Shown piece by piece: positions 3,928-64,000 of a stretch of 64,000 nucleotides of DNA. The notes under the pieces were generated by a model, which saw only the letters and a list, made by a program, of their open reading frames with translations, did not search any database and had not been told where the DNA came from. Numbering within the stretch: the first letter of the stretch is position 1; each line of letters opens with the position of its first letter. Origin of the DNA: Lishizhenia tianjinensis (GTDB lineage Bacteria > Bacteroidota > Bacteroidia > Flavobacteriales_D > Crocinitomicaceae); the NCBI GenBank assembly GCA_945902115.1, contig CAMDLY010000003.1, positions 14,029-78,028 of the forward strand, written 5' to 3'. The translations under genes and the position numbers were made by a program.

Positions 3928-4823
3928 TATAAATAGACTTCTTTATACTCATTAAAAGCTACCCTTCTCTTGTATTTACGTTGAATGAGGTGACTGTTTG
4001 AATCTTCCCAATTCAACGGTAATATATAGTCGTTGAATTTGCCAATGCCAATTACTTCGGCTGCTGTCCCGCAGAAAAATGCGGCATCCGCTAAATATAT
4101 TTCTTCAGGTTTGAATAATCTTTCTTCAACCTCAATACCTAGTTCCTTAGCAATCTCAAATACGGTGGCACGAGTGATTCCTGATAAGATATTACCGAGA
4201 GGAGGCGTGAATAATTTACCGTCTTTTTCATAAAAGAAATTTGCCCCCGGTCCTTCCGCGATAAATCCATTGATATCCGTCAAGAGTGCTTCATGATACC
4301 CGTTTTGCTTAGCCTCCGTCGTTGCTAAAATGCTGTTTGTATAGTGTCCCACGACTTTTGCTTGCACGTGGCAACTTTTGGGGTTAGGTCGTTGATACGA
4401 GGAAAGCATCACATGCAATAAGTTATCCCCTAGATATTTCCCCCATTCCCAAGCCATCATCACTAAATGCACTTCATTTGTTGGCGTAAGCGACATATTT
4501 GCCCCTAAATAAACCAAAGGACGTATGTATGCATCTTTCAATTTATTAATCTCTAACAATTCATAGGATAATCTTGTCAACTCATCTGCAGTCCAAGGAA
4601 AAGGCATGTACATTGATTCTGCGGAATATTTGAGACGTTCGTAATGTTCTTTAGCTTTGAAAATTCTCACGCCATCAGGTGTATCGTACGAACGAATTCC
4701 TTCAAAAACACCGCTACCGTAATGAAGTGTTTGGGAATATAAATCTGTTTGTGCCTCTTTCGCCGGGATAAACTTGCCGTCCAGGTAAACTTTAGAATCA
4801 GCATTGTAATACATACTTTCCAT
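3927..4823 (-). CDS. ilvE: branched-chain amino acid aminotransferase (class IV)
   Basis: 298 aa with the motif [10 protein letters not shown]. It is the first gene of the ilv operon, and its stop overlaps the ilvD start. Confidence 0.85.
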
Positions 4824-11004: not shown

Positions 11005-13803
11005 TTAAAATGGGTAGCCAATACCAAAATTCAATATCGGAACAAAGGGTTTGGGCATTAGTTTATATTCTTTTATATATATCCACGAATCATCCAAGCT
11101 TGGCGACGTAGTGACATTAGGATTATCTGCCATATATAAATCAAGTGCCTTTTGCCCATAATTGGCGATTCCCTCCTGATAGTAAGAGGATCTATTGAAG
11201 AGGTCTTTGAAATACCATTTATTGGTTCCTGATAGTGCGGGATTATAAATGGGTAATCCAAGATCTAATCGAAAAACAAAAAAATCAAAATCGAAACGAA
11301 TACCAACTCCGACAGAAAGCGCTATTTCTTTGTAGAAACTCGACAAATTAAATTGAGAACCAGGTCTTTTTTCGTCCTGTTTATATGTCCAAATGTTTCC
11401 TGCATCTGCAAACAGGGCACCTTTAAAAAACCCACCCATTGTAAAACGGTATTCCAAGGAAGTCATAAAGCGAATATCACCCGTTTGGGTTGGTAAGCGG
11501 GAAGAGTCAAGGTGATAAGCATAGGCGCCAGGACCTAGAGTTCTCGCTCGGTAACCACGTATATCATTTGATCCTCCAGCAAAAAAACTATAATCATATG
11601 GCATCGATGTCACTGAATTCAAATAAGGTATTCCACCCCCTGCGTTTGCTTTAAAGTGTAAAGATGATTTTTTCTTGTATTTTTTACTTAAAATATATTG
11701 ATTGTCAATTCTAATAAATTGTGAATACGGGACATTTAAAAATTGATAGGAGCCCTGACTATTAATTGTTTGAAGAGATCGAAATCCCCGTAACATGTTT
11801 CCTGCTGCATCAATGGTTGTTTGAAAATAGATCGATGCATTGAAAAGAGGTTTTTTTCTCTTTGTTGTCTCCCAATCTCGCTCACCATTATTGTACTCCC
11901 AACTAAATTTAAAATCCTGCCAAATAAACTGTTTACTGTAGGTATTCCTAAAAAATGGGTCGTCAACCGTATTTAAATAATTCTCAAAATCACCTTTGGA
12001 GTCAAAGAGTACATATTTAATAGATGATAAACCCGGAAGACCAATCTGGAATATCTGCGTTTTACCAACATAGAATTTCCAATAACTTGAGAACTGGAAA
12101 ACCTGTCGATCGAAAATAGAACGTTTTTCAAGGTTATAAGAGGTTGATATTACCGTTCTAGGGCGTTGTCTTTTTGTTAATCTAGTGATAGGAATTGGTA
12201 ATAATCCGGGAGTATCGAATTTAATGGAAGGACCTATTTCTAAGGTATTAAAAAACTGATCTCTCTCATCCGTATTTGCTTTTGTTTGCGACTCAAAGCC
12301 ACCACCGAAAGAAAACGTCAATTTCTGAGCACCTCTCGCAACATTCTTATTGGAATAATTTAACGCTGCCGAAAGACCCAATAATCCACTGGTATTCGTT
12401 GTAAATCTAGGGTCAAAACCAAAAGAGTGCTTTTTAGAAGGCTCTAAGAAATAATGAACATCTACAATGTTTTGTGTTTTTGTTTCGCCAACATCCAGAA
12501 TGATTGGTTTTACATTATCGAAGACACCCAATAACTGAAAACTCCTGTATGATCTCTCTAAATATTTCTCTTTATATATATTTCGATGCTCTAAATAATT
12601 TTGCAGTGACAAAAGCTCGGGTTTAATCCAAGGTTTATCCCCATTATATTTCAACATGATTTCCATGTAAGGATCTGGATCACCCTGCTTTAAATCTGGG
12701 AAATTTTTTAAACGCGCTTTTGAGGCTTTGATTCTGTCGTAATATTGTTCATTCGTAGTTACCAAAAATTGAGGTGCAATAGGATCTTTCTTATCTTTTC
12801 CATTCAATTCTTTGGAAAAATCTCCTTTCACATTTATTGAATCTGCTAAATGAATGTAGACGTTTCTAATTTGTGTTGATTTAAGTGACAACTTATTTAA
12901 ACTATCACTTTTCTGTTTATCAGTCAAGGAAGGATCAACATTGAAAATTAGTTTTAAATGAACTTTCATTTCCCGAGTATTTGTATCCAATTCATAAACC
13001 GTATTGGACGCAAAAAACTTGTAAAAACCTCTGTCTTTCATGTATCTCGAGAAATCGTTTCTATGCTCATCAAGCATTTCAACATCCAAAAATTTACCCA
13101 GAAGAGGTTCTTCACCGTTGGACTCTTTCTGATTTTTTGAAAATATCTTGTGTGCAGATTTCGCAGAAATATTTCCTGCATAGCTTAATGAATCTATTAC
13201 ATATGGGAGTCCTGTTTTGACTGTATATAATGGATAAGCGTATCTTTTTTTATCATTTTTTTCAACCGAAACTGTCACATCGGCGTAATAGAATCCTTTT
13301 TTTCTAAGAAACAATCTCATTTGTTCTTGCGTCTTTCGCACCAATATAGTATCCAATACAACAGGATTCTGACCATATTTATATTTAATTGTTTCACCAA
13401 AAGAAATTTTGGTGTAAACAGTATCGCGAAGTATTTTTGGTTTATAGGTCGGTTTGCCTTTTGAAATCGCCTTATCCCTTCTTTTTTCATTTATTTTAAG
13501 GAACTTGATTCTCTTTTCATTTAACTTAATCGAAAATTCATCCAACTTTTTTATTCTCTTAACGGCTAATGAAGTTGAGTCGTATAAATTAAAGAGATGA
13601 AGACGTATGGGTATACCGATGAATTTTTGATTAGGCTGTTGGCGAAGGACGTATTCAATATCTTCTAGCAAAATAGCATGATTATTCAAGGAAATTTTAT
13701 TCTTTTTTAGTAAATAAGAATTCTCAGGAATGAATTTAGATTGCCTACATGCTGTAATCAGCAGTAAAATATGTAAGAATAATATTACTTTAGCATGTTT
13801 CAT
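11005..13803 (-). CDS. BamA/TamA-family outer membrane beta-barrel protein
   Basis: About 930 aa with a C-terminal barrel ending in the aromatic tail NFGIGYPF. I moved the start to the internal ATG (MKHAKVILFL, signal-like) because the longer ORF would overlap the trmH-like start. Confidence 0.7.
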   Translation of the reverse strand: MKHAKVILFLHILLLITACRQSKFIPENSYLLKKNKISLNNHAILLEDIEYVLRQQPNQKFIGIPIRLHLFNLYDSTSLAVKRIKKLDEFSIKLNEKRIKFLKINEKRRDKAISKGKPTYKPKILRDTVYTKISFGETIKYKYGQNPVVLDTILVRKTQEQMRLFLRKKGFYYADVTVSVEKNDKKRYAYPLYTVKTGLPYVIDSLSYAGNISAKSAHKIFSKNQKESNGEEPLLGKFLDVEMLDEHRNDFSRYMKDRGFYKFFASNTVYELDTNTREMKVHLKLIFNVDPSLTDKQKSDSLNKLSLKSTQIRNVYIHLADSINVKGDFSKELNGKDKKDPIAPQFLVTTNEQYYDRIKASKARLKNFPDLKQGDPDPYMEIMLKYNGDKPWIKPELLSLQNYLEHRNIYKEKYLERSYRSFQLLGVFDNVKPIILDVGETKTQNIVDVHYFLEPSKKHSFGFDPRFTTNTSGLLGLSAALNYSNKNVARGAQKLTFSFGGGFESQTKANTDERDQFFNTLEIGPSIKFDTPGLLPIPITRLTKRQRPRTVISTSYNLEKRSIFDRQVFQFSSYWKFYVGKTQIFQIGLPGLSSIKYVLFDSKGDFENYLNTVDDPFFRNTYSKQFIWQDFKFSWEYNNGERDWETTKRKKPLFNASIYFQTTIDAAGNMLRGFRSLQTINSQGSYQFLNVPYSQFIRIDNQYILSKKYKKKSSLHFKANAGGGIPYLNSVTSMPYDYSFFAGGSNDIRGYRARTLGPGAYAYHLDSSRLPTQTGDIRFMTSLEYRFTMGGFFKGALFADAGNIWTYKQDEKRPGSQFNLSSFYKEIALSVGVGIRFDFDFFVFRLDLGLPIYNPALSGTNKWYFKDLFNRSSYYQEGIANYGQKALDLYMADNPNVTTSPSLDDSWIYIKEYKLMPKPFVPILNFGIGYPF

Positions 13804-17617: not shown

Positions 17618-18651
17618 TGTTTGAGAAAGAAATAGCAATTGTCATTTTAAATTTCAATGGTTCTCTCCATTTGAAAACATTTTTACCTTCGGTAATTGAG
17701 CATTCCCATTCGGCAACAATTTATGTGATTGACAATGGAAGTACTGACGATTCCATTCAAGTTATCGAAAACGAATTTCCAACTATTCATGTGATTCAAA
17801 ATGAGAAAAACTTTGGATTTGCGGGAGGATATAACGAAGGGTTATCCCAGATAAAGGAAGCTTTCCCATTCTTTGTTTTATTAAATTCAGATGTAGAAGT
17901 TACTGCTAATTGGTTAACTCCACTTCATGAAACTATGAAAAAGGAATTTAGCTGTATTGCTGTTCAACCTAAAATACTATCATACAGCGATAAAAATTCT
18001 TTTGAACATGCGGGCGCTGCTGGAGGATATATTGACAAGCATTACTTTCCATTTTGTAGAGGGAGGATTTTTGATACTATTGAAAAAGATAATTCTCAAT
18101 TCAATAGCCCCAAAGAAGTCGCCTGGACCTCAGGTGCTGCAATGATGGTAAGAGCTAAGGAATTTGTTGAAATTGGGGGATTTGATGCTGATTTTTTCGC
18201 TCACATGGAGGAAATTGATTGGTGTCTGCGTGCAAAAGCCTATGGATATACTCTCTCGTTTTGTCCTGAAAGCACCGTATTTCATTTGGGAGGTGGAACA
18301 ATGCCTTATGAAACTTCATTTAAAGTCTATCTAAATTTTAGGAACAATTTAACGATGATCATTAAAAATCACCAAGGATTTCTTTTTCCGTTATTATATG
18401 CTAGAATGTCCTTAGATGGAATAGCAGCTTTCAAATTTCTTTTGAGTGGAAAACCAAGCTTATTATGGGCAGTTTTTAAAGCACACATGTATACCTATAA
18501 AAATTTAGGTAGAAATCTGCATAAACGAAAAGCTATTCAACACAAAAAGAAACAATCCCTGCTACTTTTCAAAGGAAGTATTTTATGGGATTATTTTATT
18601 CTTAAAAATCGTACTTATTATAAACTGAATAAACGAAGATTTAAGCAATGA
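17617..18651 (+). CDS. glycosyltransferase family 2
   Basis: Motifs AIVILNFNG, VIDNGSTDDS and LNSDVEV. I placed the start at the ATG overlapping the upstream TGA (TGATG); the ORF track starts 3 nt earlier at a TTG. Confidence 0.8.
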   Translation: MFEKEIAIVILNFNGSLHLKTFLPSVIEHSHSATIYVIDNGSTDDSIQVIENEFPTIHVIQNEKNFGFAGGYNEGLSQIKEAFPFFVLLNSDVEVTANWLTPLHETMKKEFSCIAVQPKILSYSDKNSFEHAGAAGGYIDKHYFPFCRGRIFDTIEKDNSQFNSPKEVAWTSGAAMMVRAKEFVEIGGFDADFFAHMEEIDWCLRAKAYGYTLSFCPESTVFHLGGGTMPYETSFKVYLNFRNNLTMIIKNHQGFLFPLLYARMSLDGIAAFKFLLSGKPSLLWAVFKAHMYTYKNLGRNLHKRKAIQHKKKQSLLLFKGSILWDYFILKNRTYYKLNKRRFKQ

Positions 18652-21647
18652 GGAAACTACTATTTGGGCTTTTTTTATTTCAACTTCAACTTGTATTTAG
18701 CCAGGTTCCTGTAATTCAGCAAGTAAGTGATAAAGCAGAGGAAACCTTTGGTAAGGTCAAGAATATAGCCCCCAAATTTACGCCAACGAAATGGGTCAAT
18801 CCATTTATTGGAACAGGAGGGCATGGACATACTTTTCCGGGGGCCACTGCCCCATTTGGTATGATTCAATTGAGTCCAGACACAAGACATGAAGGCTGGG
18901 ATGGTTGTTCAGGTTATCATTACAGCGATTCAATTATTTATGGATTTTCACATACACATTTAAGTGGCACAGGAGTTCCTGATTATTGTGATTTATTAGT
19001 TCTTCCGACAACGAAAAAAGGACAGAGACAGCCGGGTTATTTAAAGCCAAAAACCGGTTATGGGGCCACTTTTAAACATAAAAAGGAAAAAGCAAGCCCA
19101 GGAATTTATTCGGTTTTCTTGGATGAAGAACAAATTGAAGTTCGATTGACAGCCGGGCAGAGAGCAGCTATCCACGAGTATACCTTTCCTGAAAGTGCAA
19201 AAACGAAATGTGTGATCATAGACTTAGAGCATAGAGATAAACTTTTGAAGGGAGGAATAGTTGTTGATGAAAAAAAGAAGAATATTCTTGAAGGTTCGAG
19301 AATTTCATCCTCTTGGGCAAGTGAGCAGCATTTCTATTTTTCAATACTGTTTAGTACTTCTTACACGAAAATCAAGAAACTGAAAGGCACGCGCTACGCC
19401 TTATATTTCCCAAAAGAAACTAAGAAATTGTATTTGTGTGTGGGTATCTCGTCCGTTGATATCGAAGGTGCTAGAAAAAATATTGAAGCGGAAAACAACA
19501 TAGAAACAGTTGATTTTTCCGAAAAATTCATTCGTACCTACCAAAAAACGATGCTCTCTTGGAACAAGGAACTGTCTGCAATTAAAATCACTTCCGACGA
19601 TAAAGATGTGTTGACAAATTTTTATACTTCTCTGTATCACGCTTATTTAGCTCCAAATATTTTTTCGGATGCAGATGGTAGGTATCGGGGTAGAGATAAC
19701 AAAATTCACCAATTGGATAATGATACGCAGTATACTGTTTTTTCTTTATGGGACACCTATAGAGCTAATCACCCTCTATTCACAATTACCCAGCAAGACA
19801 AAACAAATGCATTCATTCGTACTTTCCTCCGTCAATTTGACGAGGGGGGTGATTTACCCGTTTGGGAGCTAGCAGCTAACGAGACTGAATGCATGATCGG
19901 ATACCACGCAGTAAGCGTTATATCCGATGCCTACACGAAGGGATTGAGAGATTTTGATGCGAAGAAAGCTTTAGGTGCTATGCACTACACGTCCAGTCTC
20001 AATGAATATGGAAAAAACCATTTTCAAGAAAATGGTTTCATTAGTTTAGACCAAGAACCAGAATCTGTTTCCAAAACCTTAGAATATGCCTACGATGAAT
20101 TTTGTATCACTGAAATGGCTAAAGCAATGGGAGTTGACAGTATAGAAAAGTCACACCTGAATGCGAGTTTTAACTTCATCAATATTTTCGATCCGACAAG
20201 TAAATTCATGCGTGCACGACGTCAAGCGCAATGGTACAGTCCATTTTCTCCGAATGAGGTTAATTTTAATTACACGGAGGCGAATAGCTGGCAATATTCT
20301 CTTTATGCGCCTCAACATATTGCAACGCTCAGAAATTTGATCGGTGGTCCAGATTCCCTAGAAAATTGGCTTGATAGATTATTTAATACTCCCTCCGACT
20401 TGAGCGGAAGAGAGCAAGCAGACATTACAGGTTTAATAGGTCAATATGCACACGGAAATGAACCTTCGCATCACATGGCGTACTTATACAACTATACAAA
20501 TTCCCCTTACAAAACGCAATTATATGCAGATAAAATATTGAAGGAGATGTATTTAAATACTCCCGATGGCTTATCTGGAAACGAGGATTGTGGGCAAATG
20601 AGTGCATGGTACGTCTTAAGTTCTCTTGGTCTCTACCCTATTGCTCCAGGAAAACCTATCTACGATATCGGAAGACCTCTAGTGAATGAAGCTACAATAA
20701 CTTTAGAGAACGGTAAAACATTCCAATTGAAGACGTATAATAACTCAGGTGAAAACAAATATATCCAACAGATAAAATGGAATGGTAACTCGCTAGGTAA
20801 ATTACAATTCCCTCACGAACAACTCATCAACGGCGGATTACTTGAAATTGAAATGGGTAATACCCCCAATAAAAATATTTTGGGTAATCTAGACGAGGAG
20901 AAAATACCAAATTCACTTGTTCCGCAACCTTTTGTAATTACGGAAGAACGCGTATTCGAAAATGAATTGAAAGTTAGCCTAGGGTACGTAAAACTTTCTA
21001 CTGAAGACGAGTATTTCTTATTTTACTCTTTCGACTCATTGGATTGGTTAATTTATGAGAAACCTTTTATCATTAACAAAACATGCTCAATCCAAGTCAA
21101 ACTTCAGCGGCGCTCTGTCGATAGAAAGGTTAGTCATAGCAAAAGTGTAACTGCGTCATTCAGAAAAAAAAAGACAGGTATTAAGCTTGTTCTTCAAACA
21201 CCTTATGCCAATCAATATGCTGCGTCGGGAGCCAATGCATTAATTGATGAAATAACAGGGGCTAAAGAATTTCGAAATGGCGAATGGCAAGGTTTCCTGG
21301 GAAATGACATTAGGGCAGAAGTACTATTTGATTCCATACAATACTTCAGTCAATTTGGAGTTTCCGCAATCCGTGACCAGAAATCATGGATATTCTATCC
21401 CAGTCAGATTGACGTTGAAGTTTCGAGTGATGGAATAACATTCAGGAAACTGAAACCTCTCAAGATCCAAAAAGCTGAGCCTTCAGAGAAAAACCCTGAG
21501 AAAAACGAGTTTCTAATAATTTTGAATAACCCTATTCCAATAAAAGCTATCCGTTACAATATTAATAACCCAGGGGTATGTCCTGCTTGGCATCTTGGTT
21601 ATGGAAATAAAACGTGGCTATTTCTTGATGAACTGATTTTCAAGTGA
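18648..21647 (+). CDS. GH92-family alpha-mannosidase with a C-terminal discoidin-like domain
   Basis: 999 aa with a signal peptide. GH92 hallmarks NPFIGTGGHGHTFPGATAPFGMIQLSPDT and HGNEPSHHMAYLY are present. Confidence 0.85.
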   Translation: MRKLLFGLFLFQLQLVFSQVPVIQQVSDKAEETFGKVKNIAPKFTPTKWVNPFIGTGGHGHTFPGATAPFGMIQLSPDTRHEGWDGCSGYHYSDSIIYGFSHTHLSGTGVPDYCDLLVLPTTKKGQRQPGYLKPKTGYGATFKHKKEKASPGIYSVFLDEEQIEVRLTAGQRAAIHEYTFPESAKTKCVIIDLEHRDKLLKGGIVVDEKKKNILEGSRISSSWASEQHFYFSILFSTSYTKIKKLKGTRYALYFPKETKKLYLCVGISSVDIEGARKNIEAENNIETVDFSEKFIRTYQKTMLSWNKELSAIKITSDDKDVLTNFYTSLYHAYLAPNIFSDADGRYRGRDNKIHQLDNDTQYTVFSLWDTYRANHPLFTITQQDKTNAFIRTFLRQFDEGGDLPVWELAANETECMIGYHAVSVISDAYTKGLRDFDAKKALGAMHYTSSLNEYGKNHFQENGFISLDQEPESVSKTLEYAYDEFCITEMAKAMGVDSIEKSHLNASFNFINIFDPTSKFMRARRQAQWYSPFSPNEVNFNYTEANSWQYSLYAPQHIATLRNLIGGPDSLENWLDRLFNTPSDLSGREQADITGLIGQYAHGNEPSHHMAYLYNYTNSPYKTQLYADKILKEMYLNTPDGLSGNEDCGQMSAWYVLSSLGLYPIAPGKPIYDIGRPLVNEATITLENGKTFQLKTYNNSGENKYIQQIKWNGNSLGKLQFPHEQLINGGLLEIEMGNTPNKNILGNLDEEKIPNSLVPQPFVITEERVFENELKVSLGYVKLSTEDEYFLFYSFDSLDWLIYEKPFIINKTCSIQVKLQRRSVDRKVSHSKSVTASFRKKKTGIKLVLQTPYANQYAASGANALIDEITGAKEFRNGEWQGFLGNDIRAEVLFDSIQYFSQFGVSAIRDQKSWIFYPSQIDVEVSSDGITFRKLKPLKIQKAEPSEKNPEKNEFLIILNNPIPIKAIRYNINNPGVCPAWHLGYGNKTWLFLDELIFK

Positions 21648-45886: not shown

Positions 45887-45961
45887 GGGAGTTTAGCTCA
45901 GCTGGTTTAGAGCATCTGCCTTACAAGCAGAGGGTCGGCGGTTCGAACCCGTCAACTCCCA
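45887..45961 (+). tRNA. tRNA-Val (anticodon TAC)
   Basis: 75 nt cloverleaf folded by hand. The acceptor stem is GGGAGTT/AACTCCC, the D arm GCTC...GAGC and the anticodon stem TCTGC/GCAGA with loop CTTACAA. The T arm is GGCGG-TTCGAAC-CCGTC and the discriminator base is A. Confidence 0.93.
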
Positions 45962-45965
45962 CAAG

Positions 45966-54844: not shown

Positions 54845-56044
54845 ATGCCAAAAATCTCAGTAAAAGCTGAAGCCATGCCGGCATCTCCAATAAGGAAACT
54901 TGTTCCGTTTGCAGAGGCAGCAAAAAAACGTGGTACAACCGTTTATTATTTAAATATCGGACAACCTGACATTGAGACTCCCGAAATCGCGCTTAATGCC
55001 ATTAAAAATTTAGACAGAAAAGTTATTGAATATTCTCATTCTGCGGGCTTCGAAAGTTATAGAATGAAATTGTCAGCCTCTTATATTAAACAGGGATTAC
55101 CGGTAAATACAGAAGATATTTTAGTCACGACGGGAGGTTCTGAAGCTCTTATTTTTGGTTTTATGACTACCTGTAATCCAGGTGACGAAGTGATTATCCC
55201 AGAACCATTTTATGCCAACTACAATGGCTTTGCCGTAACCGCTGGACTGAACGTTGTTCCAGTAACTTCGAGCATAGAAAGTGGCTTTGCTTTACCACCA
55301 GTCGAAGAAATAGAGAAAAAAATTACACCAAAGACTAAAGCTATTGTCATATGTAATCCTGGTAACCCAACAGGCTATTTATACTCTCAAAGTGAATTAG
55401 AGCAACTGCGAGATATCGTCAAAAAATATGATTTATTTCTTTTCGCAGACGAGGTCTACAGAGAATTTTGTTACGATGGAGCACAACCATTTTCTGTAAT
55501 GAATCTCGCCGGTATTGAAAATAATGTCGTGATGATTGACTCTGTTTCAAAACGCTATTCGATGTGTGGAGCAAGGATTGGTGCTATGGTCACGAAGAAT
55601 AAAGATGTCATGGCTGCAGCACTCAAATTTGGACAAGCAAGACTCTCACCTCCAACAATAGATCAGATAGCTGCTGAGGCCGCATTGGATACGCCGCAGA
55701 GCTACTTTGACAATGTTGTAGAAGAGTATGTTGAAAGACGAAATATAATGGTTGACGGATTAAATGAAATCCCCGGTGTGTTTTGTCCAAAGCCGTCTGG
55801 AGCGTTTTATTGTGTAGCAAGCTTTCCTGTTGACGATGCTGAAAAATTTTGTCAATGGTTGTTGCAAGATTTTAGTTACAATGGCCAAACGGTTATGATG
55901 GCTCCTGCTAATGGATTCTACTCAACAAAAGGCGCGGGAAAAAAGGAAGCACGAATAGCTTATGTTCTCAATAAAGAATCACTGAGAAATGCTGTTCAGT
56001 GTTTAAAAAAAGCACTTGAAGAATACCCCGGTAAAACAGTCTGA
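54845..56044 (+). CDS. PLP-dependent class I aminotransferase (aspartate aminotransferase-like)
   Basis: 399 aa with the PLP-lysine motif DSVSKRYSMCGARIG and NPGNPTG. Confidence 0.88.
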   Translation: MPKISVKAEAMPASPIRKLVPFAEAAKKRGTTVYYLNIGQPDIETPEIALNAIKNLDRKVIEYSHSAGFESYRMKLSASYIKQGLPVNTEDILVTTGGSEALIFGFMTTCNPGDEVIIPEPFYANYNGFAVTAGLNVVPVTSSIESGFALPPVEEIEKKITPKTKAIVICNPGNPTGYLYSQSELEQLRDIVKKYDLFLFADEVYREFCYDGAQPFSVMNLAGIENNVVMIDSVSKRYSMCGARIGAMVTKNKDVMAAALKFGQARLSPPTIDQIAAEAALDTPQSYFDNVVEEYVERRNIMVDGLNEIPGVFCPKPSGAFYCVASFPVDDAEKFCQWLLQDFSYNGQTVMMAPANGFYSTKGAGKKEARIAYVLNKESLRNAVQCLKKALEEYPGKTV

Positions 56045-56048
56045 AACA

Positions 56049-56519
56049 ATGACTGTTGAGGATATATTGGCAGCTGTTTCTGAAGAAAGGAAGGACAGCT
56101 TTAATTTGCTCCGAAAAACGATTATAGACAACCTTCCACAAGGATTCGAGGAAACTGTGAGTTACGGAATGATCAGTTATGTAGTCCCTCACAAAATATA
56201 CCCGCAGGGATACCATTGCAATCCTAACATTGCGTTACCCTTTCTAAGTATTGCCTCTCAAAAGAATACCATAAATTTATATCATATGGGTATTTATGCT
56301 GACAGCAACTTATATGACTGGTTCGTATCGGAATTTCCGAAACATACTACTCAAAAATTAGCTATAGGGAAATCCTGTATTCGGTTTAAGAAAATGAACG
56401 AAATTCCTTTTAATCTATTAGGTTCACTTGTTGGTAAAATGACAACCAATGAATGGATCAACCTCTATGAGCGTACATTCAAAAAACAACTTAGCACACA
56501 ACTTTTTGCGACAATATAG
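56049..56519 (+). CDS. DUF1801-like protein (chromosomal paralog of the 63435-63890 gene)
   Basis: About 156 aa, counted from the internal ATG (MTVEDIL). By hand alignment over ~145 aa it is identical to the 63435-63890 product at somewhat more than half of positions. Shared blocks include YVVPH.IYP.GYHC, ASQKN.IN.YHMGIYAD and GKSCIRFKK. Confidence 0.6.
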   Translation: MTVEDILAAVSEERKDSFNLLRKTIIDNLPQGFEETVSYGMISYVVPHKIYPQGYHCNPNIALPFLSIASQKNTINLYHMGIYADSNLYDWFVSEFPKHTTQKLAIGKSCIRFKKMNEIPFNLLGSLVGKMTTNEWINLYERTFKKQLSTQLFATI

Positions 56520-57936: not shown

Positions 57937-58716
57937 ATGGCTGAAGGTGTTTTGACAATATTAGGTTCAGGAACTTCTCAAGGCGTTCCGGTAATCGCTT
58001 GCAATTGTGCTACATGCAAATCTGAGGACCCGAAAGATAATAGAACAAGAAGTAGTGTTTTGATACATGCTGACGGTAGACAATTTGTTATTGATACAGG
58101 ACCAGATTTTCGTCATCAAATGCTACGAGAGAATGTTCAGTTCTTAAATGGTGTTATTTTCACGCACCAGCACAAGGACCATATTGCCGGACTTGACGAT
58201 GTCAGAGCTTTTAATCACAAACAAAATGAAGCAATGCCCGTTTACGCAACTGCTGCAGTTAATGAGGCATTACACCGAGAATATCATTATATTTTTTCCG
58301 AAGAAAGTTACCCAGGTGTTCCTAAGCTAAGCGTCGAACTGATTGACCTTGCACCGTTCTCGATAACAAATTCTTTGCGTTTAACACCTATACTCGTAAA
58401 CCATTACAAGATGCCGGTACTGGGTTTCCGTATGGGTGATCTGACTTATATTACTGATGCTAAAACTATTGCAGAAAGTGAAAAAGAAAAAATTATAGGA
58501 TCTAAGACATTAATAATTAATGCTTTACATATTTATCCACACATATCACATTTTAATTTAGAGGAGGCTTTGGCATTTATCGATGTGGTTAAACCAGAAA
58601 AAGCTTTTCTCACTCATATTTCTCATTTATTTGGAAAACACGAAGACATTTTTCGCTTATTGCCCTCGCATGTAGAACCAGCCTTTGACGGCTTGAAAAT
58701 ACCTTTTTACTACTAA
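57937..58716 (+). CDS. MBL-fold metallo-hydrolase (PhnP-like)
   Basis: 259 aa with the motif FTHQHKDHIAGLDD and an N-terminal Cys cluster (CNCATC). Confidence 0.8.
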   Translation: MAEGVLTILGSGTSQGVPVIACNCATCKSEDPKDNRTRSSVLIHADGRQFVIDTGPDFRHQMLRENVQFLNGVIFTHQHKDHIAGLDDVRAFNHKQNEAMPVYATAAVNEALHREYHYIFSEESYPGVPKLSVELIDLAPFSITNSLRLTPILVNHYKMPVLGFRMGDLTYITDAKTIAESEKEKIIGSKTLIINALHIYPHISHFNLEEALAFIDVVKPEKAFLTHISHLFGKHEDIFRLLPSHVEPAFDGLKIPFYY

Positions 58717-58717
58717 A

Positions 58718-58848
58718 GCTTAACGTTTTGCGGCTACCCGAAGGGCGGGACTTTTACCACAAAACTTGATTTGAAAAACTAATGTTTGATTAACCACAAA
58801 ACTGTCTTTGGAACACGAACCCTCGCCTTTTGGGTAGGTGCTGTTAGC
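58718..58848 (-). repeat. attC-like structured repeat, copy 1 (131 nt), terminal site of the array
   Basis: On the + strand it reads GCTTAAC ... GTTAGCA. The terminal helix is GCT(T)AACG/TGTTAGC, followed by an 8x4 internal loop. A 16-bp stem pairs 58734-58749 (CTACCCGAAGGGCGGG) with 58822-58837 (CCTCGCCTTTTGGGTAG-type arm). Internal modules TTAACCAC and AAACTGTCT are shared with copies 2 and 3. It ends 7 nt before the phzF-family stop codon. Confidence 0.7.
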
Positions 58849-58855
58849 AGTAGTT

Positions 58856-59644
58856 TTATTCTGTCCAAAATTCTCCAATTGAATATGTTTTTGCTTGTCC
58901 ACTAATAATCACTCGGTCTCCTTTGTCTTCACAATACAACTTGCCCAATCGTTCAGAAACTTGTTGAGCATAAAGTTCTTTTTTATTTAGTCTTTTCGCC
59001 CAAAATGGAATTAAAGAACAATGTGCAGAACCTGTTACAGGGTCTTCTAAAATTGATGCTTGCGGTGTGAAAAATCTTGAAATGAAATCGCAATTGTCTC
59101 CAATTGCTGTTACAATTACACCTCCTGGGTCAAGATTTATTTGGTCGAATAATTGTCTGTCAATTTTTATGTTTCTAACTTCTGTTTCATTTTCATACAC
59201 CAAAACATAGTCTCTTGATTTCAAAATTTCTTTCGGTTGAATATTTAAGGATTTTGAAATTGTCGTTGGTAAGATGTCGACAATAGGCATTCTTGATGGG
59301 AAGTTCATTTTATATTTTCCATTTTCAATTTTGACAATTAAGTCGCCACTTAAAGTTTCAAACACAATTTTATCTTTCTTATAGTCAAGAATTGTCGCTA
59401 AACCATGAGCAGTTGCAAGTGTAGCGTGACCGCACAAATCCATTTCAATTTCAGGCGTAAACCATCGTAAATGGATTTTTTCTCCTTTGTCAACAAAAAA
59501 AGCAGTTTCAGCAACTGCGTTTTCTTTTGCTATTTTCAACAAGATTTCGTCTGACAACCAATTGTCAAGTGGCACAACACAAGCAGGATTTCCTCCAAAA
59601 ATTGTGTCCGTAAATGCGTCAATTTGATATATATTATGTTTCAC
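58856..59644 (-). CDS. PhzF-family isomerase
   Basis: 262 aa with N-terminal IYQIDAFT...FGGNPACVV and C-terminal TGSAHC. The start codon is GTG. Confidence 0.8.
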   Translation of the reverse strand: MKHNIYQIDAFTDTIFGGNPACVVPLDNWLSDEILLKIAKENAVAETAFFVDKGEKIHLRWFTPEIEMDLCGHATLATAHGLATILDYKKDKIVFETLSGDLIVKIENGKYKMNFPSRMPIVDILPTTISKSLNIQPKEILKSRDYVLVYENETEVRNIKIDRQLFDQINLDPGGVIVTAIGDNCDFISRFFTPQASILEDPVTGSAHCSLIPFWAKRLNKKELYAQQVSERLGKLYCEDKGDRVIISGQAKTYSIGEFWTE

Positions 59645-59661
59645 TATGTTCTGTTTAAAAT

Positions 59662-59718
59662 TACTGCTAACGAGTATATACTAACAATAAAACGATACTT
59701 ATCTAATCAATGTTGGGT
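59662..59718 (-). repeat. degenerate or truncated attC-like site (boundaries uncertain)
   Basis: TACTGCTAAC at 59662-59671 is the exact reverse complement of the distal box of copy 1 (GTTAGCAGTA, 58843-58852). A GTTGGGT box (GTTRRRY) lies at 59712-59718. The long stem of the full copies is missing, and further family-like fragments (TGAACCATTCTTTGT around 59787) follow. Confidence 0.35.
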
Positions 59719-59872
59719 GACTAAGGATGGTTTTAACATCCAATTTTGTATGACTAATTTAACTGCAATTTACAAATTATGAAAGGTGAACCATTCTTTG
59801 TTCTTCTTTTATTGCTAATTGAAGAACAAAATTATAGGTCGGACTTAAGCTTTCATAAATTGGTTTTATAAA

Positions 59873-60559
59873 CTAGTCAAGTTGTTCGAATGAACGAATT
59901 GCATTGTTTGAACTAAAATAGAGCGTGTAATTTTTACCTACTGTAAAAACTTGGCTAACAAAACTGAATGCAAATGCTTGCTCGCCCATCACTACATATT
60001 CAATTTTGCTGCGGTATTCTATTTTTATCGGACCGCTTATTTTGTCAACCGTTCCTTGTTGCGCAGCTTTACGTGCTTTCCAATAGAAAAAAAGGCCAAT
60101 GGCACTTAGGGGCAAAAAACTAAAGATGGAAAGGACTATCCCCCTTTCTACCATCAGAAGGATTAAAACACTAAAGATTACTGAAAGTGCACCAAAGACA
60201 ACCAAGATAGTTAAACCCGCTTTTTGGGTTTGCTTTTTTTGCCTATCGCTTAAAAATCCTTTTCTATTTATCTTCAAATCCTCTTCAGTAAAACTAAAAA
60301 AAGGATAATTTACCCCTTTGCTTTTTGTTTTTGGTTGAATGGGGGTGGTCTCGTTTTGAGCAATTTTTGCTATACGATCTAGCGTTTGGTTGCCAAAGGA
60401 TTTGTATTCTATAATTTCATCTGCAGTTAAATGAATGTATTTACTATACATACCAACACTGCCGCAAATAACTTCTAAAACATAATCATCATTTAGATTA
60501 TATAAGACATAATTCCAAGGACTTTTGGTTATTTCTGTATAATTGTCGAGGTTAATCAT
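59873..60559 (-). CDS. hypothetical membrane protein (two central transmembrane helices)
   Basis: 228 aa ORF. It has a soluble N-terminal ~100 aa, two hydrophobic helices (LTILVVFGALSVIFSVLILLMV and VLSIFSFLPLSAIGLFFYW) and a soluble C-terminal ~60 aa. I recognise no family. Confidence 0.45.
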   Translation of the reverse strand: MINLDNYTEITKSPWNYVLYNLNDDYVLEVICGSVGMYSKYIHLTADEIIEYKSFGNQTLDRIAKIAQNETTPIQPKTKSKGVNYPFFSFTEEDLKINRKGFLSDRQKKQTQKAGLTILVVFGALSVIFSVLILLMVERGIVLSIFSFLPLSAIGLFFYWKARKAAQQGTVDKISGPIKIEYRSKIEYVVMGEQAFAFSFVSQVFTVGKNYTLYFSSNNAIRSFEQLD

Positions 60560-60575: not shown

Positions 60576-61619
60576 TTACTTTAACTTTTCACAGTTGATT
60601 TCACCTTCTAATTGAAAGCGTTCAAATTCCGAATCACTAAACGCACCATTACCATTATTAATTCTACGGAAATAAACATCACCAAAAAAGCATTTATCAT
60701 TTTCTGAATAAACAATAGTACACCTAGCTGCTTTTGATTTTATGGTGCCATCTACTTTATTGGTTATTGAATAAGATTGAACATAATTTATATATTTTAC
60801 TTTTGAACCAGGTTGCGCATTCTCAAACAATTCTATGGCATGCGCTTTTGATACTTCTGCATCTTTTTCATTAAAACTGTTTGACTGGTAACCCTCTGGA
60901 AGTTCATTATGAACATAATGTTTTGTTTTTCGGGAATTAGTGGACGGGTAACGTACATCAAACAAATACTGTGATCTCAACCCTTTTAACTTTAATGGTT
61001 GATTATTTTTTTTTAATTCACCCTTTGAGTTGGTATATTCAATGGTAATGATGGTGTTAGCGTCTTTTGGACTATCGCTAATTGCCATATTGTTAACTGC
61101 ATCAACACTACTTTTGATGTATGAGTTGTTTTCAAAATCAGGAAAGGAAGATGCCGCATTAACATCTGGTAGTAAATCGAAAAAAAGATAGGTTGTTCCT
61201 TTTCCTTCTGGATCATAGTTGACCGCAAACACACTTAATTCACCAGGATTTGATTGGTTTTTGGATTTTAATTCCATTACTGCTTTTACTTTTGTTTGGT
61301 TTAAAGCACCAAACCAACATTTCCAAGCAATTGCACCCGACTTTTTTGCAGTTGCGTTATGTGCACCTGTGTGTTTTGTATGGTATAAAAATAAATTGTT
61401 TCCAGATGGCGTGCCGAACAAATCAAAAAAACCTGCATCATCAATTTTGATAACACCATATGCATTTTGCTTGGTTATATCTATTTCGTTGATGCCCACC
61501 AATGTGGAGGTTGCGGTATCTTCAATTACAAAAGGTTTTTCAGTAATAATTATCGTTTGTCCAACGGAGAAAAAGGGAGACAAAAAAAACAATATTGCAA
61601 GATGGTTGAGTTTTTTCAT
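60576..61619 (-). CDS. hypothetical secreted protein
   Basis: About 347 aa from the internal ATG (MKKLNHLAILFFLSPFFSVGQ, signal-like). I recognise no motif. It ends 16 nt upstream of the start of the 59873-60559 ORF. Confidence 0.5.
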   Translation of the reverse strand: MKKLNHLAILFFLSPFFSVGQTIIITEKPFVIEDTATSTLVGINEIDITKQNAYGVIKIDDAGFFDLFGTPSGNNLFLYHTKHTGAHNATAKKSGAIAWKCWFGALNQTKVKAVMELKSKNQSNPGELSVFAVNYDPEGKGTTYLFFDLLPDVNAASSFPDFENNSYIKSSVDAVNNMAISDSPKDANTIITIEYTNSKGELKKNNQPLKLKGLRSQYLFDVRYPSTNSRKTKHYVHNELPEGYQSNSFNEKDAEVSKAHAIELFENAQPGSKVKYINYVQSYSITNKVDGTIKSKAARCTIVYSENDKCFFGDVYFRRINNGNGAFSDSEFERFQLEGEINCEKLK

Positions 61620-61640
61620 TTCTAATTGATTTTGGTTAAA

Positions 61641-61648
61641 CAAATATA
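61641..61648 (-). promoter_or_regulatory. -7 promoter box TATATTTG inside a cassette
   Basis: Exact TAnnTTTG match on the minus strand, 21 nt upstream of the ATG at 61619. Confidence 0.4.
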
Positions 61649-61801
61649 GAAAAGTTTTTATTGTTTGCAAGAAAACAAATTTCGTAATTCAATTTAACCA
61701 TACGTTGCAAAAACGTAGAAATTCTTACACCACAAAATATTTATTCCAATCTATTTTTTAAACGATAGCCCTTTTTCTTTTAATGCTTTTTGTAAAATGG
61801 T

Positions 61802-61946
61802 GCATAACGTTTTGGCGCTTGGCGAAGAAGCGGATTTCGAAGCACTAAACTGTCTGCCATCACTAAACTTGATACGAAGCACAATCCCGATAGCTATCGG
61901 GATCATTTAACCACTGAACCGCCAATTTCTTGTAGGTGCTGTTAGC
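61802..61946 (-). repeat. attC-like structured repeat, copy 2 (145 nt, irregular stem)
   Basis: On the + strand it reads GCATAAC ... GTTAGCC with terminal helix GC(A)TAACG/TGTTAGC. It shares TAACGTTTTG and TAGGTGCTGTTAGC with copy 1. It shares ATTTAACCACTGAAC (15/15) and TACGAAGCAC (10/10) with copy 3. It contains the 20-nt perfect palindrome ATCCCGATAGCTATCGGGAT (61884-61903) and lies 30 nt past the stop codon of the T9SS-cargo gene. Confidence 0.7.
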
Positions 61947-61976
61947 CACAGTGAAGTTTGTCGTTGTACAGTCGTG

Positions 61977-63206
61977 TCAGTCAGTGATTACTAGTTTGCT
62001 TTGTGTAATAATTTTATTGTCTTTTGTTAAGCGAATAAAATAAATTCCGCTTGCTAAATTATCCCTGTCTATTTTTATTTCATTTCCGGAAATCCTATTT
62101 ATTGTTTTTACCTTTTGCCCAAACACATTATAAAGGTTGACTTCTGCCTCATGCAACATGGAGTTACTTTGAATAGTTGTAAAATCATTAAATGGATTTG
62201 GAGAAATGCTTAATTGATTTACATCGGTTTGGTTTTCTAAAACAGCAGTAACTAAAGTCAAATCACAATCCAAAATAAAAGGTTGGGAGTTGTAATTGTT
62301 TTTCCAGATTGTTACCACTTCAGGTATGAACTTCCACTCCACTTTGTTTTGAGAAACCAATACGTTAATGGAGTCCATGAGGTCATCCATTTTTACGTTA
62401 ATGAAACCGGGTACTCCAAGATAGCTTTCTCTAAAAAAAACACTTGTGCAATAAAAACCGTTTGCTGGGGCCGCGCCAGATTGAATAGCATTTACTATAT
62501 AGCGAATTTCATTCATTACAGTAGTAATATTTGTAGTGTCATGCACTTCTATCTTACAACCCTGCCCGTAATTGATAAGGTGATTAGAAGGTTGGTGTGT
62601 GAAAAACGAAGTCATAGATTGAGGTTTCCACATTCCGTAATCTACCGGATCATTTGTATGGCCCGGTGTTGCTGCCCCCCAAAGGATTTCAGGCGCCCAT
62701 GTATAATTTGGGAATACAACTCCTGCCGTAGGGTTTTGATAATCTTGCCAGTCGTGTCCACTTTGAAGCTGGCTATATAAAAACCCACTCATTACAGTTC
62801 CGGGATTTACACCCAAACTATCATGAAGTTTTGCAACATCTGCATTGTTGTATGTGCTTTCGTGCGCATGAGGATCACATTCTACATTATTTATGTAAGC
62901 GGAGGAAATGTATTTTAATACATTTTGACCACCTGTGTTCATCTGAACAGTTCCTGTATCATATTTTATTACCGCTCTCAACAGTATATGATCGCTTCCT
63001 AAATGCCACTTAGCTCCTTTAGCAGTAGCCAATTGGGCCATCTGTATTATTCTGGGTCTTACGCTGTAAAACGAAGGAGGGTTAGTTAAGTAAGTGTAAT
63101 TTTCTTCGTTATGCGAAACAATGTTGATATATAATTTTGGAAGTTGAGCCTGAGCAATAAAAAATGTGAATGTAAACTGCAAGGCAAGTAGTAATTTCTT
63201 TTTCAT
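61977..63206 (-). CDS. secreted protein with a T9SS C-terminal sorting domain; N-terminal domain unknown, possibly a metal-dependent hydrolase
   Basis: About 409 aa from the internal ATG (MKKKLLLALQF...AQAQ). The Por-type tail is LSISPNPFNDFTTIQ...LASGIYFIRLTKDNKIITQSKLVITD. Candidate metal ligands are SHNEE and DPHAHE. Confidence 0.7.
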   Translation of the reverse strand: MKKKLLLALQFTFTFFIAQAQLPKLYINIVSHNEENYTYLTNPPSFYSVRPRIIQMAQLATAKGAKWHLGSDHILLRAVIKYDTGTVQMNTGGQNVLKYISSAYINNVECDPHAHESTYNNADVAKLHDSLGVNPGTVMSGFLYSQLQSGHDWQDYQNPTAGVVFPNYTWAPEILWGAATPGHTNDPVDYGMWKPQSMTSFFTHQPSNHLINYGQGCKIEVHDTTNITTVMNEIRYIVNAIQSGAAPANGFYCTSVFFRESYLGVPGFINVKMDDLMDSINVLVSQNKVEWKFIPEVVTIWKNNYNSQPFILDCDLTLVTAVLENQTDVNQLSISPNPFNDFTTIQSNSMLHEAEVNLYNVFGQKVKTINRISGNEIKIDRDNLASGIYFIRLTKDNKIITQSKLVITD

Positions 63207-63292
63207 TTTCTTTTTGTCAGTGATTATAGTGCTGACTCTGCACTTTTTAGTTGAATCCAAGGTCAATAATATTCTGTCTTTGTTGCATTGTG

Positions 63293-63423
63293 GCTAACGG
63301 TTCTCAGCTATACGCAGGCAGGGATTTAACCACTGAACTTCCCACGAAGAACTGAACTTTAAATTTATCACTTTCCTGTCCTACGAAGCACGAAACCCCT
63401 GCTTGCGTATAGGTGATGTTAGC
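63293..63423 (-). repeat. attC-like structured repeat, copy 3 (131 nt)
   Basis: On the + strand it reads GGCTAAC ... GTTAGCG with terminal helix GCTAACG/TGTTAGC and an 8x4 internal loop. A 16-bp stem pairs 63308-63323 (CTATACGCAGGCAGGG) with 63397-63412 (CCCTGCTTGCGTATAG). It lies 12 nt past the DUF1801 stop codon. Confidence 0.7.
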
Positions 63424-63434
63424 GGGTCGTTGTT

Positions 63435-63890
63435 CTATTTTTTCATTGTTTTTTCGTAAATATTTATCCATTCTTTGACACTTATTTTCTTCATTAAGTC
63501 ACCAATGAGTTTGTATGGAATTTCGTCTAGCTTTTTAAAACGAATACAACTTTTTCCCATATCAAGTTTTTGCTTAGTGTGCTTTGGATATTCCGTTACA
63601 AACCATTCCAATAATTTGGTGTCTGCATAAATGCCCATATGGTAAAAATTAATAGAATTTTTCTGCGAAGCAAGTCCTGCAAATGGTAGTGGTTCACTTG
63701 GTTTACAATGATAACCTGCTGGATAAATTGTATGAGGGACAACATATCCCAAACCACCATAACTAATGGCTGCTTCAAAACCGTCCGGCAGGTTCTTTAC
63801 TATAACTTCGTGTAGTTTGTTAAAAGGTTCTGACCTGTCTTTGGGAAGGTTTGTCAGAATTTCGTTTACAGTTTTTCCGTTTGCTTTCAT
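63435..63890 (-). CDS. DUF1801-like protein (cassette-borne paralog)
   Basis: 151 aa. See the alignment with the 56049-56519 product. Confidence 0.6.
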   Translation of the reverse strand: MKANGKTVNEILTNLPKDRSEPFNKLHEVIVKNLPDGFEAAISYGGLGYVVPHTIYPAGYHCKPSEPLPFAGLASQKNSINFYHMGIYADTKLLEWFVTEYPKHTKQKLDMGKSCIRFKKLDEIPYKLIGDLMKKISVKEWINIYEKTMKK

Positions 63891-63902
63891 ATGTGATTAG
63901 TG

Positions 63903-64000
63903 TTAACGATGTTGGTCAAGTAAAATCACATTTCCGTCAGGGTCGGTTAGCATTAGGCTTGCAGGCCCTTTGGTTTTTTCGTCAGCTTCGCTTGTAAGTT
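63903..64000 (-). CDS. VOC/glyoxalase-family protein, C-terminal fragment (partial at the window edge)
   Basis: Hand translation of the minus strand gives ...LTSEADEKTKGPASLMLTDPDGNVILLDQHR-stop. The DPDGN.I.L ending is typical of the VOC fold. Only 32 codons are visible. Confidence 0.4.
   Translation of the reverse strand, partial: LTSEADEKTKGPASLMLTDPDGNVILLDQHR

Follow-up and report, generated by a model that had tools for sequence, protein, structure and literature searches.

Integrons are the textbook devices of gene capture and shuffling. In sedentary chromosomal integrons, for example the VCR-bearing superintegron of Vibrio cholerae, a tyrosine recombinase heads an array of co-oriented, mostly single-gene cassettes, the recombination sites are imperfect hairpins of variable length and sequence and of conserved structure whose antisense strand folds better, crossover takes place at G|TT with the last bases of each site owned by the next cassette, new cassettes enter at the integrase-proximal site, and arrays vary between strains and contain duplicated cassettes. 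Essentially zero complete integrons were reported from Bacteroidetes in the IntegronFinder 2.0 paper (PMC9024848), and in our full-text literature searches no account of a system such as the one presented here was encountered for Bacteroidota. We analysed a stretch of 64,000 nt (hereafter the window) from Lishizhenia tianjinensis, a freshwater Crocinitomicaceae bacterium of the Flavobacteriales (assembly GCA_945902115.1, contig CAMDLY010000003.1, positions 14,029-78,028 of the forward strand; coordinates are relative to this stretch unless preceded by a locus number). All the integron features listed above recur in and around a repeat array at its end, and we consider it highly probable that what lies at the end of the window is the distal portion of an integron-like cassette array on the chromosome, with cassettes exchanged at G|TT by a linked, non-canonical recombinase.

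The part of the array found in the window (58.7-64 kb) holds three repeats (sites 1 to 3; Table 1) that correspond to hairpin sites of ~130-145 nt with the pattern xTAACG-(4 nt)-stem...stem-TGTTAGC on the (+) strand, and the genes among them all lie on the minus strand: PhzF, two unknown open reading frames (ORFs), a gene for a cargo of the type IX secretion system (T9SS), DUF1801 and a glyoxalase gene cut off by the window edge. The repeat family was traced via box motifs, then with a duplex-energy caller and then with a covariance model (R1) built from 28 related sites; a generic repeat finder did not detect it in the window, the copies being too divergent. Over the 64 kb, R1 gave only three matches, all on the (+) strand and inside the array, showing that the repeat is confined to the array and not dispersed.

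A preliminary description of this DNA had noticed that the distal box of site 2, GTTAGCCACA (61941-61950, (+) strand), is the exact reverse complement of the proximal box of site 3, TGTGGCTAAC (63289-63298), that the two boxes flank the T9SS-cargo gene (61977-63206, minus strand; 409 aa with a C-terminal Por_Secre_tail domain), and that the two ends of site 3 itself, TGTGGCTAAC and GTTAGCGGGTCG, have only GCTAAC/GTTAGC in common. We confirmed each of these observations. The two boxes are the sole exact occurrences in the window, where ~0.1 would be expected per given 10-mer in 128 kb, and the complementarity across the gene extends further than had been claimed, since GTTAGCCACAaTGcA and the reverse-complemented other end agree in 13 out of 15 nt.

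To quantify this pairing, the 12 nt after GTT at one end of a cassette were compared with the 12 nt that precede AAC at its opposite end, taken as their reverse complement. In 23 distinct cassettes, the cross-gene partners paired at 9.09 of 12 positions, compared to 4.65 for the two ends of one and the same site and 4.63 for shuffled partners (Mann-Whitney p=3.4e-10), and an independent set of 80 loci gave a similar result (8.35 versus 5.04, p=2.7e-5), so that box extensions pair across the gene and not within the repeat, as the preliminary description had predicted. Since this rule holds in 23 distinct cassettes and 80 independent loci, the complementary boxes around the T9SS gene are not due to chance. 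Nine cassettes reach 11/12, with a lone mismatch that is always found at position 11 and that is an A.C on the gene strand, hence a G.T on the antisense strand; position 11 is also among the two mismatches of the T9SS cassette. Because the cross-gene extensions pair, the site of an excised, circular cassette would have an outer stem of ~15 bp.

Natural variants then showed directly where the cassettes begin and end, and that they move. Contigs from several metagenome projects and assemblers were collected by exact identity of their DUF1801, MBL-fold or T9SS proteins. The site that follows DUF1801 (131 nt) is identical in 7 contigs and has 5 different downstream partners: identity runs through ...GAGAACCGTT (...CCGTT) and is lost from the next base, with the continuations AGCCACA (T9SS cassette), AGCAGTC, AGCGGTA (DUF6438), AGCAGTA (MerC and a cation-efflux gene) and GGCAGAA (lipocalin), such that contigs without the T9SS gene switch sequence at the very G-T-T junction that had been proposed. 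At the far end of the array, five different last sites, one of them of only 62 nt, all abut the constant flank CGTTAAGctttag near the chromosomal MBL-fold gene. The T9SS body (1357 bp, 61941-63297) shows 0-6 differences across 12 contigs and has at least 8 left neighbours (seven different hairpin sites or the integrase-proximal site described below) and at least 7 different cassettes as right neighbours. Left partners end in ...CG (hairpin sites) or ...TG (integrase-proximal site) and right partners start with TTA or TTG; partner ends thus vary around shared bases, indicating that exchange takes place within G-T-T, the canonical integron position. Altogether, these observations support that the T9SS gene is a mobile cassette with boundaries at G-T-T.

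The same collection contained other arrangements. In L004 (2525-2690) and L104 (from 2647), the GCTAACA of the T9SS body is followed by an entirely different 167-nt hairpin site (compared to 61803-61950 in the window). In L098, inverted sites (2790-2932 and 4580-4713) and cassette genes come directly after a normally oriented T9SS cassette, and two sites stand head to head, ~110 nt apart, showing that array segments can be inverted. In L006, the glyoxalase-DUF1801 cassette is preceded not by a hairpin site but by a fragment of an insertion sequence (IS) transposase of the rve family (3-446 and ~440-525) in its place.

Junctions that are precise to 3 nt between non-homologous partners (58-nt versus 131-nt sites, or the integrase-proximal site) are difficult to reconcile with another explanation, in which the repeats would be dispersed elements of the MITE (miniature inverted-repeat transposable element) or REP (repetitive extragenic palindromic) type or intergenic terminator hairpins, with gene-content differences arising via homologous recombination between repeats. 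This explanation would account for the intergenic position of the hairpins and for their common loop motifs, and the hybrid nature of site 2, joined inside the loop, does imply that homologous or illegitimate exchange between sites occurs, yet no copy was found outside the array in the 64 kb or beside the same MBL-fold gene in related genomes (species of at most 78% identity, without an array at this position and with 43 weak hairpin calls that form a scattered background). A terminator acting in the sense RNA is moreover unlikely considering that it is the antisense strand of the genes that folds better and that no T-run follows the hairpin. Neither inverted repeats at the element's own termini, which lack complementarity past the core to the level of shuffled partners, nor dispersed copies were thus found, and we regard this explanation as extremely improbable, in line with the preliminary description, which had disfavoured a MITE.

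What these sites have in common is a structure and not a sequence. In an alignment of 28 sites (124-134 nt), 19 of the 23 stem pairs have undergone compensatory change and 93% of the cells are paired; the observed values were attained by 0 of 500 shuffles, and slid controls reached a maximum of 51.5%. Read on the gene strand, a site consists of a ...NTAAC-A box, a 3-bp and a ~15-bp stem of free sequence, a variable loop with GTG-rich motifs, a 4-nt bulge and CG|TT. Lengths range from 54 to ~300 nt, commonly ~126 nt, and the boxes (nnnTAAC / GTTRnnn) are looser than RYYYAAC / GTTRRRY. An invariant core of 5 bp is supplemented by an extension of up to 15 bp, there is a 2-nt internal mismatch that includes an invariant G, and the AACG/TGTT core contains one invariant G.T pair on the antisense strand that corresponds to an A.C on the sense strand, while the 4-nt bulge is one-sided, being found only in the 5' arm of the antisense strand. 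Folding is asymmetric as well: of 42 distinct sites, 35 have the more stable fold on the antisense strand (Wilcoxon p=2.4e-6), as illustrated by site 3 (DNA fold of -25.1 kcal/mol, z=-4.1, on the (+) strand versus -20.3 on the (-) strand). The covarying stem, the strand asymmetry and the one-sided bulge together argue for a folded single strand as the substrate, and against a sense-RNA terminator or a duplex binding site.

Site 2 departs from this picture. It does carry the box GTTAGCCACA, as described earlier, but it is not a regular copy: in gene orientation, it begins with 79 nt identical to the site that the T9SS cassette has in L103 and ends with 36 nt identical to an unrelated site (L003:4204). 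As a hybrid of two different sites it does not fold (z-score of merely -0.75 to -0.95). An 18-nt perfect palindrome, TCCCGATAGCTATCGGGA (61883-61902), is a loop insert of some alleles of the T9SS-cassette site, which then measure 140-144 nt instead of 126; it was also found in L103 and, inverted, in L098. Three sites of locus L109 (~13480-13690, ~18100-18300 and ~20740-20910) share another nested loop insert of ~170-200 nt, giving sites of ~290 nt; this repeat within recombination sites is overlapped by one called ORF. A tRNA-derived origin, suggested by the D-arm-like loop motif GTTCAGTGGTTAA, was considered and rejected, as ARAGORN and Rfam gave only a tRNA-Val (TAC) at 45887-45962, the sole such feature of the window and unrelated to the array. 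Rfam has no family for the sites, its snoR07 and MIR5048 hits at the E-value threshold being noise.

We then looked at the recombinase that heads such arrays. In L099, the T9SS cassette is the first one after a co-oriented tyrosine recombinase of 556 aa, and other cassettes follow the same recombinase in L097. Residues 287-540 form a SAM-like and a catalytic domain (Pfam PF13495, PF00589), for which the closest solved relative is VchIntIA (2a3v), both by sequence (1e-39) and by fold. A phmmer alignment with VchIntIA places query residues 458-477 (20 aa) opposite residues 182-244 of IntI4 (63 aa), showing that the IntI-specific I2 insertion is absent. The protein scores 209.8 bits with the integron-integrase model TIGR02249, below its cutoff of 265 and in two pieces, 142 with PRK15417 (cutoff 435) and, similarly to TIGR02249, 211 with the XerA model NF040815 (cutoff 220). 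The N-terminal 280 residues consist of three beta-beta-alpha-beta-beta-alpha repeats with a W..K.W.IP motif; a Foldseek search with the N-terminal model gave nothing significant, and a few homologues have precomputed HARP matches.

Downstream of the recombinase, L099 and L097 have two palindromes followed by AGCGAGATG|TTA and are identical through GATGTTA before they diverge. L107 and L108, whose recombinase is 64% identical, likewise share the integrase and diverge directly after GGTG|TTA. The regions of L099, L109 and L107 contain two short palindromes with AAACGC-type half-sites, the second of which ends 8-9 nt before G|TT, and those of L192 and L191 contain one palindrome that ends 5 nt (L192) or 9 nt (L191) before it. 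A recombinase that adjoins an array through such an attI-like insertion site was seen in L099/L097, L107/L108, L109 and L192, all outside the window. In L099, the two palindromes together form one 22-bp inverted repeat, with a loop that differs between L097 and L099.

Directly upstream of the recombinase gene, a divergent gene encodes a cysteine-rich protein of 119-120 aa with an N-terminal CxxC...CxxxC, which belongs to no Pfam family. Lineages with recombinases of only ~67% identity share this protein at 83% identity, and it is absent from the corresponding position in L107/L108. This protein may be a cofactor or a regulator.

The linkage between recombinase and array was further verified in other lineages. 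In L109, an integrase with ~67% identity is followed by at least 10 cassettes that obey the same rules. Downstream of 80 further homologues, 48 sites were found in 153 kb in the same orientation, compared to 4 in 302 kb upstream (Poisson p=6e-48), a ~24-fold enrichment showing that sites and recombinase are linked. The recombinase/site family occurs widely in Bacteroidota: the protein collection yielded more than 100 clusters of 540-560 aa with at least 54% identity, the few with an organism name being mostly from Bacteroidota or Bacteroidales metagenome-assembled genomes and annotated only as XerD or site-specific integrase, and a profile of the N-terminal region matched 1548 representative clusters, of which 115 had E<=1e-30. 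A complete system is also present on plasmid pFA3 of the cultured Cytophagales strain Fulvitalea axinellae DSM 100852 (L192, 8815-18809), which encodes a 435-aa relative with apparently fewer N-terminal repeats, named 'xerA: site-specific tyrosine recombinase/integron integrase' by PGAP, and has an integrase-proximal palindrome, at least seven hairpin sites (seven model matches on the antisense strand), cross-gene pairing as elsewhere, a cassette present in duplicate (one protein accession occurs twice) and an IS3 element within the array.

The XerA-level score of the catalytic core, which is as near to XerA as to IntI and lacks I2, the 'xerA' name of the Fulvitalea protein and the position of genes between inverted boxes, as in dif modules (PMC7530245), raise the question of whether a Xer-type enzyme acts here on duplex sites without any folding, with the inverted boxes as inward-facing binding arms as in Acinetobacter pdif. 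Symmetric duplex sites would also more easily explain the L004/L104 junction and the inverted segments. In such sites, however, a G.T pair on one strand only and a one-sided 4-nt bulge would be meaningless, and it is pairing (the compensatory stem changes and the cross-gene extensions) that is conserved between cassettes rather than arm sequence. A pdif site is 28 bp long with conserved XerC/XerD arms around a 6-bp spacer; here, the arms differ beyond GTTR/YAAC and covary with their pairing partner. Compared to XerA/XerC/XerD systems and their pdif modules or IMEX (integrative mobile elements exploiting Xer), the present arrays thus have long covarying hairpins in place of conserved 11-bp arms with a 6-bp spacer and stand beside their recombinase gene, and the N-terminal extension of that recombinase is absent from Xer proteins. 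Altogether, we judge it very unlikely that these are duplex sites of the Xer/dif type.

If the recombinase were incidental, the sites could instead be ordinary attC sites served by a classical I2-bearing IntI encoded elsewhere in the genome, and the window alone would indeed be classified as a CALIN (attC cluster lacking integrase), with a G|TT crossover, xTAAC...GTTRnnn boxes, hairpins of variable length and co-oriented cassettes that all fit integron logic. This possibility does not sit well with a recombinase found exactly at the head of the array in three lineages (100%, ~67% and 64% identity), each with a variable first cassette joined at G|TT, nor with the enrichment of sites downstream of its homologues; complete canonical integrons are also almost unknown in Bacteroidetes (PMC9024848), and the geometry of the sites, with its 4-nt one-sided bulge and its 15-bp outer stem, is unlike that of classical attC. 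We thus hold it to be highly improbable that a canonical integrase is at work.

The preferred reading, an integron-like array with its own recombinase, implies both kinship with integrons and clear departures from them. The G|TT crossover and the imperfect, variable inverted repeats with a conserved structure are those of integrons, and with its recombinase, its proximal insertion site and its hairpin-bounded cassettes, the system is functionally an integron. It does not belong to the canonical integrons, because both the IntI insertion and the fine structure of classical attC sites (~7-bp R box, symmetric spacer, R''/L'' extrahelical bases in the 3' arm) are absent. The array recombinase differs from IntI by its length of 556 aa, with ~280 extra N-terminal residues organised as three repeats, by its co-orientation with the cassettes and by its missing I2. 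The sites differ from attC by an outer stem that would reach ~15 bp, instead of ~7 bp, in the circular form, with a recurrent imperfection at positions 10-11, and by the 4-nt one-sided bulge in place of a symmetric unpaired spacer and extrahelical bases; the integrase-proximal site is distinguished by its paired palindromes, and the host phylum has almost no reported canonical integrons. The attC origin put forward in the preliminary description therefore stands for the crossover logic at G/TT, but not for the enzyme, which is not a canonical IntI, nor for the hairpin geometry.

The arrangement suggests how the system may work. In each cassette, a hairpin recombination site comes after one gene or a pair of genes, and cassettes are swapped through site-specific recombination within G|TT, the ~15 bases after GTT belonging to the next cassette and pairing across the gene with its own ...TAAC box, usually with an imperfection at positions 10-11. 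The likely catalyst is the candidate 556-aa tyrosine recombinase at the array head, and new cassettes would be inserted at the integrase-proximal site (palindromes, 8-9 nt, G|TT). By analogy with integrons, the folded antisense ('bottom') single strand may be the one that is recombined, after recognition of the hairpin by the N-terminal repeats, with a circular cassette intermediate (predicted junction ...TGTGGCTAAC-hairpin-CG|TTAGCCACAATG) and a product that would be resolved through replication.

Several observations weigh against this reading. The recombinase is absent from the window, its link to the array being made via other contigs that carry the identical cassette; no integrase was found by Pfam in 52.7-64 kb, nor by tblastn in the whole window or in 80 related-genome loci. 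The recombinase has no I2 insertion, although the I2 helix is held to be essential for single-stranded attC recombination and to be the innovation that made it possible (PMC7790495). In the array context, the outer stem can pair over only ~4-7 bp, and the N-terminal repeats resemble HARP / XPB-DRD domains, which bind DNA in a structure-specific manner, only weakly and below significance (Pfam E=0.52, Foldseek E=0.24). The L004/L104 junction lies on the ...TAACA side and not at CG|TT, which is not predicted by a simple one-crossover model and may reflect an occasional exchange on the other strand, and L098 has inverted sites and cassettes. Lastly, all the evidence comes from assembled metagenomes and one plasmid record.

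A possible descendant of such an array was found next to a resistance gene. The Acinetobacter 'xerD' (TnpF) located upstream of tet(X3), whose presence has been treated as unexplained and of unknown role (PMC7473080, PMC7530245), is a 5'-truncated member (221 aa) of this recombinase family and shares 66% identity with the array recombinase over residues 321-555. On the Acinetobacter indicus plasmid p80-1-2-tetX3 (L191, NZ_CP041297.1, 5043-7170), xerD is followed by a palindrome, 9 nt, G|TTATGTGCC and tet(X3), and tet(X3) is in turn followed by a CTAAC-A box and by a hairpin site that breaks off after its beginning, before 'res'. The start and end extensions of tet(X3) match at 12 of 16 positions and differ by A/G at position 11, where mismatches recur in other cassettes. 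The element ISCR2-xerD-tet(X3)-res-ISCR2 thus has the layout of an array head and its first cassette; it differs by its truncated recombinase and cut-off hairpin site and now moves with ISCR2 in Proteobacteria. These sequence similarities suggest that tet(X3) was captured by ISCR2 from such an array. Other Tet(X) homologues (P0273, P0285) were considered as array-head genes and rejected, since they lie in conjugative-transposon-like regions (MobC, relaxase, RteC). In Pedobacter sp. Hv1, one true hairpin site follows tet(X)-AHSA1.

We give about even chances to a wider proposal, namely that these arrays represent a second, previously undescribed and Bacteroidota-wide class of integrons, in which an I2-less Xer/IntI-related recombinase would act on folded hairpins at G|TT, using three HARP/DRD-like domains for structure recognition and perhaps the 120-aa zinc-ribbon-like protein as a partner, and which would be the native platform of the tet(X3)-'xerD' pair picked up by ISCR2.

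The remaining features of the window are as follows (Table 1). In the PhzF cassette, 14 of 15 positions pair between the start extension GTTAGCAGTAATTTT (reverse complement of 59657-59671) and the end extension AAAACTACTGCTAAC (reverse complement of 58843-58857). The start of the adjacent two-ORF segment, GTTATGCACC, has no matching end box (5/12), no significant R1 match was found in 59672-59872, where just a remnant ...CG box stands beside 59671, and its proteins have no Pfam match above the curated family cutoff (best E 0.014); this segment is probably a decayed or fused cassette that has lost its own site. In site 3, which holds TGTGGCTAAC, the final bases read TTAGCCACA on the gene strand and are the start of the T9SS cassette. 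Beyond the window, L007 and L001-L006 carry the glyoxalase gene and additional sites upstream, showing that the array extends past the window edge toward the integrase. The cassette-borne DUF1801 gene has a chromosomal paralogue outside the array (56016-56519, (+) strand), with 188 nt of 73% identity in inverted orientation (repeat I1). Many cassettes have an A-rich RGAC(R)AC motif ~17-24 nt past the crossover, for example AAAGACAGAAT on the gene strand at 63270-63280; such motifs also occur in L001, L003, L109 and L107/L108, in forms such as AAAAAGACGACAG and TAGGACGACC. AAA[AG]AC was found in 9 of 33 cassette starts and looser GACGAC forms, judged by eye, in roughly 20 of the 33. This motif might serve as an additional binding site or act as a leader for translation.

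Table 1. Coordinates of the array features in the window and, for the last two rows, in the loci named
Feature	Coordinates	Strand	Remarks
Site 1, last hairpin site of the array, part of the PhzF cassette	58719..58848	-	R1 123 bits, (+) strand, antisense to the genes
Site 1 distal box, CG|TTAAGC (window (+): GCTTAA|CG)	crossover between 58723 and 58724		immediately next to the MBL-fold stop codon (chromosomal gene, 57937-58716)
PhzF-family cassette, crossover to crossover	58724..59670	-	gene 58856-59644; Pfam PF02567
Two-ORF segment	59671..61807	-	59873-60559, membrane-like protein; 60576-61670, no family match
Site 2, 3' of the T9SS gene, hybrid	61803..61950	-	crossover between 61807 and 61808; R1 54.7 bits, E=1.9e-11
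T9SS-cargo cassette, crossover to crossover	61808..63297	-	1490 bp: leader, gene, end extension, site 2
Site 3, 131-nt hairpin site, part of the glyoxalase-DUF1801 cassette	63289..63424	-	crossover between 63297 and 63298; R1 123.2 bits
Glyoxalase and DUF1801 two-gene cassette, runs past the window edge	63298..64000	-	DUF1801 63435-63890, Pfam PF08818; glyoxalase 3' end from 63903
119-120-aa cysteine-rich protein	L099 448-810; L097 965-1327; L109 9492-9851; L110 936-1295	-	
Integrase-proximal regions	L099 2784-2848; L109 11815-11896; L107 11806-11876; L192 10190-10225		

The cassettes observed so far encode T9SS cargo, metal resistance, restriction-modification systems and nucleases. If the reading proposed here is true, cassette capture through hairpin sites would have evolved or diversified beyond IntI, and Bacteroidota would hold a large cassette pool that is probably missed by current integron finders, which require an IntI-type integrase. 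It would also give a mechanistic origin to the unexplained 'xerD' beside the tigecycline-resistance gene tet(X3), and engineering would gain a new recombination system of structure-specific type, which plasmid pFA3 of the cultured Fulvitalea axinellae strain makes directly testable.

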